Assembly (NCBI RefSeq): GCF_003334255.1 | Contig: NZ_QOWU01000137.1 | DNA from: Escherichia coli | GTDB taxonomy: Bacteria; Pseudomonadota; Gammaproteobacteria; Enterobacterales; Enterobacteriaceae | Strand: one strand, 5' to 3' | DNA: 2,272 bases | Shown: positions 1 to 2,272 of the stretch, in pieces | Position numbering within the stretch: the first letter of the stretch is position 1 | How the letters are laid out: each line of letters begins with the position of its first letter | Program-made: the position numbers and the translations under genes | Notes under the pieces: model-generated | The model's input: only the letters and a program-made list of their open reading frames with translations | The model's database searches: none | What the model was told of the DNA's origin: nothing

Positions 1-4
1 GAGT

Positions 5-51
5 AGAGTAAGAGGCAGGGCGTAGTCGGACTATTTCCCTGCCTCTCCTCC
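5..51 (-). ncRNA. Group II intron domain VI with bulged branch-point adenosine (minus-strand A at window position 9)
   Basis: Minus strand GGAGAGGCAGGG ... CCCUGCCUCUUACUCU forms a long stem of 10 contiguous Watson-Crick pairs plus extensions. A single unpaired A on the 3' strand sits 7-8 nt from the window edge, matching the usual branch point to 3' splice site distance. Confidence 0.7.
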
Positions 52-53
52 CC

Positions 54-87
54 GAACCGGACGTGCACCTTTCAGCGCATCCGGCTC
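54..87 (-). ncRNA. Group II intron domain V (catalytic core hairpin)
   Basis: Minus strand reads GAGCCGGAUGCGCUGAAAGGUGCACGUCCGGUUC, 34 nt. It matches the domain V consensus: AGC catalytic triad near the 5' end, 9-bp lower stem including a G-U pair, 2-nt AC bulge on the 3' strand, 4-bp upper stem, and a UGAAAG loop. Differences from the common consensus keep base pairing intact. Confidence 0.92.
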
Positions 88-92
88 TCCAT

Positions 93-1616
93 TTAAATGC
101 TGGCGAACGCCATTGCCACTTCTGTAAAGCGCGATGTATACGTGTTTCTGGTCTCCGTCCTCAGATAGGGATTACCTTCGGGTAGCCGCCAGCGGAACAG
201 CTTCTTGCCTTGCCCCACCAACCGGTACAGTATTTCGCCGCTGAGCTTGCCGTGATTGGTTTTACCAAATAAAACCCACGTTTTGCTCTGACCCGGTTTC
301 GGTGATTTACACCACCACCTCATCAGGGAAGCGATACCTGTACGGTATTTGCGGGCCAGCCAGTGAGCCAGCTTCCAGAACACGACACGGTCGATATAAC
401 TGAAGACTTTGGCCTTAAAATCAACGAACTGATAGAACATGGCCCAGCCTTTCAGTTTTCGGTTGAGTTGTTCAGCCATATCGACTTTGCTTTCACTGTA
501 GTTGCCTGATAACAGTGCTGTCAGCGATGCGGCGAAGTTTCTGGCTTTCTCCTGCGGGATCGTTGAGACCACTCGCATCTCGCCATAACGACTGCGTTTG
601 CGAATGATCCTGTGCCCCAGAAAGATAAAGCCGTCATTAACATGGGTGATTTTAGTCTTATCCATGTTCAGCCTGAGTTTCAGACTGCCTTCGAGCACAC
701 CCCGACACTCCTCCCTGATGGCTTCCGCCTGTGCTTTGGTGCCTTTGACGATGAGGACAAAATCATCGGCATAGCGGCAGTACGCCACCGCGGGTTTCCA
801 CTGCCAGTTTTCTCTGACCGCCGTACTTCGGCCCCGTTGGATACTGTTATTCCAGTACCACCGATCTTTTCTGGCTTTCCCGCTCAGGTAGCGCTCATGC
901 AGGTATTGATCGAACTCATTCAGCATGATGTTCGATAATAGCGGCGATATAACACCGCCCTGTGGCACACCTTCACTGGCCGCCCGAAAGAGACCGACAT
1001 CGATATGTCCCGCCTTGATGGTTTTCCACAGCAGAGTCATGAAACGTGCGTCACTGATCCTGCGGCGTACAGCCTTCATCAGCAGTCGATGATGTACGGT
1101 GTCGAAGTAACTGGACAGGTCGCCTTCAATCACCCAGCGTCCCCGGGTTTCACCACAGTCTGTGAGCTGTAATTTCACCGTGCGGATCGCGTGGTGGACA
1201 CTGCGCTCAGGCCGGAAGCCATATGAGAGCGTATGAAAATCACTCTCCCATATCGGCTCCATCGCCATCAGCATGGCCCGCTGAACAATACGATCCCGCA
1301 ACGCGGGGATACCCAGTGGTCGCAGTTTGCCGTTGCTTTTAGGGATGTAAACCCGTCTGGCGGGCAAGGGCTGGTAGTGGCCTGAGAGTAATTCATCCCT
1401 GAGGATTTGCAGCTCAACAGCCAGTCTGGCCTGTAGCATTGTTTTGTTCACGCCATCAACGCCGGGGGTATGGGCCCCCTTTGATGAAAGCGTGATCCGC
1501 GCCGCTTCAGCCAGCCATTCTGGTTGTGTTATCAGACGCAGCAGCCGTTGAATCCGTAGGGACGGATCGGTGGCTGCCCATGTGGCAAGCTTGCGTTGCA
1601 TTTCGCTGATTATCAA
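93..1616 (-). CDS. Group II intron-encoded protein: reverse transcriptase / maturase, apparently without an endonuclease domain
   Basis: 507-aa ORF with the group II RT motifs in order: TPGVDGV (aa 50-56), PLGIP (100-104), SYGFRPERS (131-139), DLSSYFDTV (166-174), PQGGVISPLLSNIML (218-232), YADD (282-285, codons at 762..773), KITHVNDGFIFLG (322-334). A maturase/thumb-like region follows with GWAMFYQF (390-397). Stop codon TAA at 93..95. The C-terminal 70 aa contain one Cys and no HNH/zinc-finger pattern. The track start at 1616 is a TTG codon; the first ATG is 5 codons downstream (1599..1601). Confidence 0.93.
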   Translation of the reverse strand: MIISEMQRKLATWAATDPSLRIQRLLRLITQPEWLAEAARITLSSKGAHTPGVDGVNKTMLQARLAVELQILRDELLSGHYQPLPARRVYIPKSNGKLRPLGIPALRDRIVQRAMLMAMEPIWESDFHTLSYGFRPERSVHHAIRTVKLQLTDCGETRGRWVIEGDLSSYFDTVHHRLLMKAVRRRISDARFMTLLWKTIKAGHIDVGLFRAASEGVPQGGVISPLLSNIMLNEFDQYLHERYLSGKARKDRWYWNNSIQRGRSTAVRENWQWKPAVAYCRYADDFVLIVKGTKAQAEAIREECRGVLEGSLKLRLNMDKTKITHVNDGFIFLGHRIIRKRSRYGEMRVVSTIPQEKARNFAASLTALLSGNYSESKVDMAEQLNRKLKGWAMFYQFVDFKAKVFSYIDRVVFWKLAHWLARKYRTGIASLMRWWCKSPKPGQSKTWVLFGKTNHGKLSGEILYRLVGQGKKLFRWRLPEGNPYLRTETRNTYTSRFTEVAMAFASI

Positions 1617-2272
1617 AGGTCTTCACCTCGTTAGGTCAGTTAATTCACGTCGCAAACACATTCAAACTGCTTCCCTTCGCCATGTAATGGGCTTTCCCCA
1701 TCGCGGACTACTACGGAAGCTCCGCCAGCCAGCGCGTCATCGGAGCCATGCCCCCTTAACATCCGTCGCTGACCTTCCCCGGTTTACCTGCCTGGACTCA
1801 GGCATACTGAGGAGGCTGCCCGTCGCACTCTTTATCCTTGCTTGCCGCAAGTTGGCAGAAGTCAGCAACGCAAGTGTGATAGACGCTGCTGCCCCGGTGT
1901 TTCGCATACATGTCAAAACACCTTCGACCGGCAGTGCTTACGTATCACTGCCAGTTCCTCCTGCACGGCCTGTCAGATCACGTAGGCCGTGGTGACGTTT
2001 TCAACCCACAGAGGCGGATTAACGGGTTCATGTTCTTCAGCCTTTCAGTACTTAACCTTGAGGATCATCTCGGCTTAGTGATCTCGCCTCAATCCCCGTT
2101 GTCAGCGGGTTACATCACCCTGCGGGCATGCCGCAGGTCACTGCCGCTCAGGTTCTCCACCGTCACACCCGGTGGGATTGTTGGGTTTCTCATCGTGAGT
2201 TACCGGTTCAATATTCCAGACAGACTCGCGGTTCATTTAAGCATCCATGCCCGCCCTGAACTCCGGGCACAC
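1617..2272 (-). ncRNA. Group II intron ribozyme 5' portion (domains I-III and the 5' part of domain IV)
   Basis: About 650 nt of non-coding, hairpin-rich sequence between the GUGUG 5' end and the IEP start. This is the usual size and position for domains I-III. Individual domains and exon-binding sites were not mapped because no exon sequence is available. Confidence 0.75.
1624..1629 (-). promoter_or_regulatory. Putative Shine-Dalgarno sequence (GAGGUG) for the IEP
   Basis: Minus strand reads CGAGGTGAAGACCT-TTG: GAGGTG lies 7 nt upstream of the TTG at 1616 and about 22 nt upstream of the first in-frame ATG. The spacing favours the TTG start. Confidence 0.45.

Follow-up and report, generated by a model that had tools for sequence, protein, structure and literature searches.

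How the reading frame of a group II intron can end almost against its catalytic core, and which sequence then closes the stem of domain IV, is the question raised by this locus. The window is the whole stretch of DNA that was analysed, 2,272 nt in length. A sequence-only reading placed the TAA stop codon of the IEP gene at positions 95..93, 5 nt upstream of domain V (DV), which begins at 87, and this spacing is borne out here. Its interval of 54..95 has the right values, while the strand, which it left unstated, is the minus strand, along which the features run from 95 to 54. It also held that the 3′ end of the ORF doubles as the closing strand of the domain IV stem, and it is this claim on which related introns bear most directly. 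Positions count from the first letter of the window, and the features to which the argument refers are the following.

3..2272, minus strand: complete group II intron of 2270 nt (the sequence, the shared ends of insertions and the RF00029 match at the 3′ end)
5..51, minus strand: domain VI (RF00029; fold)
54..87, minus strand: domain V, the 34-nt catalytic hairpin (RF00029 and the plastid D5 models, on the same 34 nt)
88..90, minus strand: J4/5 linker GGA, unpaired (columns invariant or nearly so, outside the helix)
91..99, minus strand: 3′ strand of the predicted domain IV closing helix, C AUU UAA AU (covariation and RNAalifold)
93..95, minus strand: stop codon UAA of the IEP, with all three bases paired in the predicted closing helix
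93..1616, minus strand: IEP ORF, reverse transcriptase and maturase (ORF list; RVT_1, GIIM)
101..112, minus strand: hairpin UGGC-GUUC-GCCA made from the A-M-A-F-A codons, adjoining the closing helix (fold and alignment)
1606..1639, minus strand: DIVa-like element, a stem CUGA/UCAG around the hairpin GAGGU-GAAG-ACCUU
1659..1667, minus strand: 5′ strand of the predicted closing helix, GUUUGAAUG, 1 nt (A1668) past the last domain III pair (covariation)
1669..1720, minus strand: domain III, with a basal helix and an apical GAAA-type hairpin (compensatory changes in both)

The intron and its IEP gene

Read on the minus strand, the window consists of an entire bacterial group II intron and 2 nt of 3′ exon (2..1). 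The intron opens with GUGUG at 2272..2268 and ends with ...CUAC at 3, in keeping with the boundary consensus GUGYG / AY, and independent insertions are identical up to ...CUCUAC and divergent beyond. At the 3′ end, RF00029 matches positions 89..3 of the minus strand with 64.9 bits (gathering score 40, E 6e-12), a match that spans DV and DVI. Here, DV has the 34-nt hairpin with its conserved 5′ strand and GNRA-type loop, and the fold of DVI leaves a lone bulged A at position 9 as the branch point, 7 nt from the 3′ splice site. The Rfam group-II-D1D4 models match 9 of the 12 other bacterial introns fetched, whereas against the window they give no match even at E ≤ 1; Rfam coverage of class A domains I–IV appears to be absent, with the 5′ half of the ribozyme (1617..2272, minus strand) left unmatched. 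In the 3′ flanks of L001–L029, nearly every independent insertion has U as its first exon nucleotide (...CUAC|U), with G or C in two of them (L027, L029), and this preference fits the EBS3-IBS3 type. A CRISPR-DR8 match from Rfam at 2086..2119 on the plus strand (E 0.87; 19 bits, where the gathering score is 39) is taken to be a chance match, and the other short ORFs on both strands, which fall within the ribozyme or run antisense to the gene of the IEP, show no sign of being genes.

The intron is most likely E.c.I4, of ORF class A, a name assigned through published descriptions rather than by alignment to a reference sequence. Like E.c.I4 and S.f.I1 of Escherichia and Shigella, from which it has no known difference, it encodes an IEP without an endonuclease domain, is inserted in IS3-family transposase genes and is multi-copy in E. 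coli. E.c.I4 homes to IS629, IS911, ISEc16 and ISEc31, and seven copies of this multi-copy intron have been reported in strain E24377A (PMC3522654); one of the matches to the window (H36) is a plasmid of that strain, an indirect tie to E.c.I4. The same intron has been placed in class A, a class without En (PMC3552965). Of 5426 complete E. coli genomes, 1874 have copies spanning at least 80% of the window, and more than 1300 plasmids carry an IEP gene with 99% identity or more to that of the window. Among the copies listed, flanking annotation gives IS3-family transposase genes as the hosts of the identical copies. Thousands of identical copies at IS3-family sites point, if indirectly, to an intron capable of self-splicing and retrohoming.

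The IEP is encoded by the longest ORF of the window, the sole long one, which runs for 507 aa from a UUG at 1616 and which is flanked by both strands of the proposed closing helix. Pfam recognizes a reverse transcriptase domain (RVT_1, 2.2e-34) and a maturase domain (GIIM, 1.3e-10), and finds no endonuclease (D/En, HNH) domain in the 507-aa protein. RefSeq annotates a shorter protein of 502 aa that begins at an ATG at 1601, but the real start is probably the UUG at 1616..1614. A Shine-Dalgarno sequence, GAGGUG (1629..1624, minus strand), lies 7 nt upstream of the UUG, and the ATG is absent while the UUG position is kept in relatives L035, L039, L041, L045, L046, L053 and L055; this position reads AUG in L046 and CUG in L043.

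The stop codon and the domain IV closing helix

A protein search with the IEP returns thousands of homologues, and a scan of one genome per species gave 258 loci, 80 of which were kept (IEP identity 65–96%). These relatives (loci L015–L094) come from Gamma- and Alphaproteobacteria, including Marinobacter, Shewanella, Photobacterium, Legionella, Halomonas, Rhizobium and Novosphingobium, and other phyla are represented by several metagenome-assembled genomes, among them some labelled Bacteroidetes, Planctomycetes, Nitrospira and Acidimicrobiales. As described in 2013, class A comprised just three near-identical members; with 258 related loci at 65–96% IEP identity, and with membership judged by IEP similarity, it would now be a large family. 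A scan of viral contigs returned only identical copies of the intron and one truncated relative, which are of no use for covariation. The test of the helix draws on 57 distinct sequences with IEP identities of 65–96%, and the region upstream of the ORF was read in 66 relatives.

Among the 57 distinct intact relatives the stop codon may be UAA, UAG or UGA, but its distance from the GAGCCG of DV is always exactly 5 nt. In the window, the spacer reads A92 U91 G90 G89 A88 on the minus strand. The homologous proteins all end in the same final alignment column, so that their C-terminal length is fixed. Because the 5-nt gap is fixed in all intact relatives, the spacing is not due to chance. Three degenerate copies still have a stop where the intact relatives have theirs, 5 nt from DV; in one of these, from Paraglaciecola polaris (L047), a TAG interrupts the frame two codons early, and the other two (L033, L061) have stops or frameshifts further upstream.

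On the comparative evidence, a 9-bp helix formed by 1667..1659 and 99..91 of the minus strand closes domain IV, with the stop codon inside it. The 3′ strand takes in one base (the third) of the penultimate codon, all of the final codon, the UAA and a further two nucleotides of non-coding sequence, and is followed by the three nucleotides of J4/5, which read AGA in some relatives, while J3/4 is a single nucleotide. A helix whose 5′ strand starts 1 nt past domain III and whose 3′ strand ends 3 nt before DV is, by its position, the closing helix of domain IV. The 57 sequences were aligned on two anchors, the conserved CAG that follows domain III and the stop codon, to give 58 gap-free columns. 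In this alignment, 96.9% of cells are paired across the nine base pairs, compared with 79.9 ± 1.1% in shuffled controls, none of which reaches the observed value (0 of 500), and with 20–45% in registers slid by one to three columns. Kinship alone can beat column shuffles; the measures of pair types and of double changes are exceeded as well, with compensatory double changes at six of the nine pairs (110 cells) and 23 extra pair types. The register was picked by eye before testing, a concern that is lessened by the slid controls and by RNAalifold, which, given the alignment alone, returns the identical nine pairs. Sequence conservation is high in the GGA of J4/5 and in the first pairs of the helix, and at helix positions 6–8 the sequence varies freely while pairing is kept.

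The stop codon itself occupies columns 45–47, which pair with columns 15–13. At the middle base of the stop and position 1664, the 57 sequences divide into 27 with U-A, 27 with C-G and 3 with U-G, none of them mismatched, and where the stop changes between UAA and UGA, a change from U to C on the opposite strand goes with it. This covariation of stop identity (UAA/UGA) with the opposite strand makes a tidy case of a stop codon under constraint from RNA structure. The covariation of 99..91 with 1659..1667 across 57 introns thus upholds the proposal that the 3′ end of the ORF provides the closing strand of domain IV.

The duplex energy of the closing helix is −5.0 kcal/mol, that of a weak, AU-rich helix. 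The MFE fold of the full 2270-nt intron pairs 1667..1659 with ORF sequence and lacks the closing helix, whereas the fold of a mini domain IV from which the ORF was deleted contains it; a single-sequence fold of the 130-nt 3′ end gave nothing informative on domain IV. Comparative analysis was used because single-sequence folding misses weak, long-range helices, and as the helix is both weak and absent from the full-length MFE fold, its support is comparative throughout. Two other candidates for the 5′ strand were considered and set aside: CCAUU at 1690..1686, which could pair with AAUGG at 93..89, and GCUGGC near 1728, which could pair with GCCAGC at 104..99. Both segments belong to domain III or its flank, and CCCAU is the 3′ arm of the domain III apical hairpin, itself covarying.

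What the protein requires of these codons can be read from its C-terminus. The last four residues of the IEP have entropies of 1.84, 1.60, 2.30 and 3.06 bits, with 11 different residues at the final position, while the V-A-M-A just before them is nearly invariant. Since the protein makes little demand on its last residues, the constraint at the very end of the gene is mostly one of RNA, and their nucleotides covary with 1659..1662. The sequence-only reading had supposed that these codons answer to protein and RNA alike. Part of this stands, in that the stem does hold four sense nucleotides and the stop codon; the part to be qualified is the protein half, since at the last two residues there is hardly any constraint from the protein. 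When codon and structure conservation are set against each other across related introns, as that reading had envisaged, pairing is kept (96.9%) and the last residues are variable.

The elements on the 5′ side of the gene come from a second alignment, which covers the 130 nt that precede the ORF and on which the evidence for domain III and the DIVa-like element is based. In the 66 relatives the pattern is a domain III-like element, then a variable stretch, then a near-invariant Shine-Dalgarno and start. Domain III is defined by pairs between columns 12–17 and 58–63 and between columns 30–35 and 41–46, its last pair lying at 1669. The DIVa-like element is defined by pairs between columns 94–97 and 125–128, which form the CUGA/UCAG stem with compensatory changes, and between columns 105–109 and 114–118. 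Its hairpin, GAGGU-GAAG-ACCUU, sequesters the Shine-Dalgarno sequence (1629..1624) and the first base of the UUG start (1616), and is located some 20 nt downstream of 1667..1659, the 5′ strand of the closing helix. The 34-nt element as a whole is near-invariant across 65–96% IEP identity.

By analogy with Ll.LtrB, the DIVa-like element is probably the site of IEP binding and autoregulation in class A introns. In Ll.LtrB, DIVa is a hairpin at the beginning of domain IV that includes both Shine-Dalgarno sequence and start codon; the hairpin of the window likewise includes the Shine-Dalgarno sequence and the UUG start. DIVa of Ll.LtrB is reportedly both the binding site of the IEP and a translational operator, and LtrA bound there represses its own translation. 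The stop codon of Ll.LtrB presumably lies further from DV than does that of the window intron.

Stop codons near domain V in other bacterial introns

The sequence-only reading regarded a tight coupling of ORF end and core as something already known in bacterial introns, and a survey agrees with it. Starting from 12 unrelated plasmid-borne IEP genes with 29–35% identity to the window IEP, DV was located by Rfam, and 10 of the 12 introns were usable, having both an annotated CDS and an RF00029 match. The gaps between stop and DV in these ten are −11, −2, −2, −2, +1, +4, +6, +24, +27 and +133 nt, so that in seven of them the stop codon is within 6 nt of DV or inside it. A 5-nt gap is, by these figures, typical, and several classes are more compact than the window intron. 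The most extreme is an RmInt1-like intron of S. meliloti with a 419-aa IEP (L103), whose UGA lies 8 nt inside DV (gap −11). In three introns (L100, L101, L106) the UGA overlaps the first two nucleotides of DV, the GA of GAGCCG (gap −2), while a Shigella locus (L104) has its stop 4 nt before DV and another intron (L097) has it 6 nt before.

RmInt1 (class D, Sinorhizobium meliloti) and the E.c.I3-like introns resemble the window intron in having an IEP without an endonuclease domain and an ORF whose end is pressed against or into the catalytic core, as seen in L103 and L104. They differ in where the frame ends, since the RmInt1 ORF overlaps DV, whereas that of the window ends within the stem of domain IV, so that DV carries no coding sequence; RmInt1 and the window intron also belong to different ORF classes, with IEPs that are about 30% identical. 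In the published structure figure of RmInt1, start and stop codons are boxed in the drawing of domain IV (PMC4615759). Chloroplast-like (IIB1) introns of the EcI5 type likewise have the end of the ORF and the core compacted, as in the window, but encode longer IEPs of about 500–600 aa. This compaction is seen in L097 and in L100, L101 and L106, three loci with matches to group II models of Rfam. IEPs of the chloroplast-like class are known to carry D/En domains. Three of the surveyed loci (L097, L100, L101) match RF02012, unlike the window, which matches no D1–D4 model.

The intron and this kind of overlap are already known, and the overlap is ordinary for bacterial group II introns. A literature search found no explicit published statement that a stop codon lies in the domain IV stem or in DV, nor one placing it in the domain IV stem of E.c.I4. 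ORF ends that abut or overlap domain IV or DV are widespread in bacterial group II introns and raise no new question, and the significance of the present case beyond annotation is little. The one mildly new detail is the clean covariation of stop identity across a large class A family.

Translation, folding and the place of the stop codon

We consider it very probable that, in this likely E.c.I4 intron, domain IV is closed by a weak, AU-rich helix in which the stop codon is embedded, with the ORF filling the domain IV loop. In such an arrangement the IEP gene would occupy nearly the whole of the loop, the closing helix would hold domain III next to domain V, as it does in group II ribozymes generally, and a stop codon placed inside the helix would let the ORF exploit all of domain IV. 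A ribosome at the stop codon (95..93) would have to unwind all nine pairs, and, from what is known of ribosome footprints, a terminating ribosome would be expected to cover J4/5 and the base of DV. At that moment, translation of a precursor and a closed III-IV-V junction, and with it a splicing-competent core, would be mutually exclusive. The helix would then re-form once termination is over, and the new protein could bind the nearby DIVa hairpin, with its Shine-Dalgarno sequence and UUG, and shut off translation, as in Ll.LtrB. A coupling of translation to folding through the stop codon in the helix is plausible.

Two other accounts would do without a stem at the stop codon. The proximity of stop and DV might be incidental, with the helix formed from other, non-coding sequence and the position of the stop set by a fixed protein length. 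The invariant C-terminal length in the protein alignment would agree with this, as would the absence of the helix from the full-length MFE fold. However, the nucleotides of the last residues covary with 1659..1662 even though the residues themselves are unconserved, which stop codon is used covaries with the strand facing it, and RNAalifold finds the helix; and since there are only 5 nt between the stop and DV, no non-coding strand is to be had there. We judge this account extremely improbable. The stretch around the stop codon might instead be a sequence recognized by a protein or by the ribosome, for instance as a contact of the IEP or as the context of termination. Contacts between group II IEPs and regions of the core are known, and the conservation of the GGA of J4/5 and of the first helix pairs is what such a sequence would look like. 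Yet 110 compensatory cells and 23 extra pair types go beyond mere sequence conservation, pairing collapses to 45% or less when the register is slid by one, and positions 6–8 vary freely and still pair, which together leave recognition without a stem highly improbable.

A further possibility accepts the helix and asks more of it, namely that the overlap has been selected as a switch in which termination times the closure of the ribozyme and the loading of the protein in cis, over and above genome economy. The stop position is invariant in 57 diverged introns despite free change of stop type, a weak helix would be easily melted by a ribosome, and the site of termination and the presumed IEP site are neighbours in the fold. 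Against this, other classes have their stops at +24 to +133 nt or inside DV, and such varied positions mean that no single geometry is needed for group II function; the invariance is also explained equally well by a helix that has to adjoin DV. Selection for such a switch is on balance unlikely. A more specific form, in which class A introns fix the stop in a deliberately weak helix, the terminating ribosome holds domain IV open while abutting DV, its release snaps this helix shut beside the DIVa site and the protein binds there in cis, we regard as quite unlikely. If a timing switch of this kind did operate, one round of translation would be coupled to folding of the core and to RNP assembly.

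With domain IV closed by a helix that contains the stop codon, the last codons and the stop are positions of RNA structure, in an intron that is very common in E. coli and on plasmids. Because the end of the ORF is RNA-structural, engineering of this intron, be it tags, ORF deletions or targetron-style class A constructs, must preserve the pairing of 91..99 with 1659..1667 or compensate for its loss. Next to this helix lies the short hairpin at 101..112 (UGGC-GUUC-GCCA), which is built from the codons for A-M-A-F-A and where, given the near invariance of V-A-M-A, constraints of protein and RNA plausibly coincide. A 5-bp version of this hairpin is 89–100% paired in 46 relatives, with U-A in 14 and C-G in 27 at one of its pairs, and in the other relatives the hairpin is kept with a register shift of one nucleotide.
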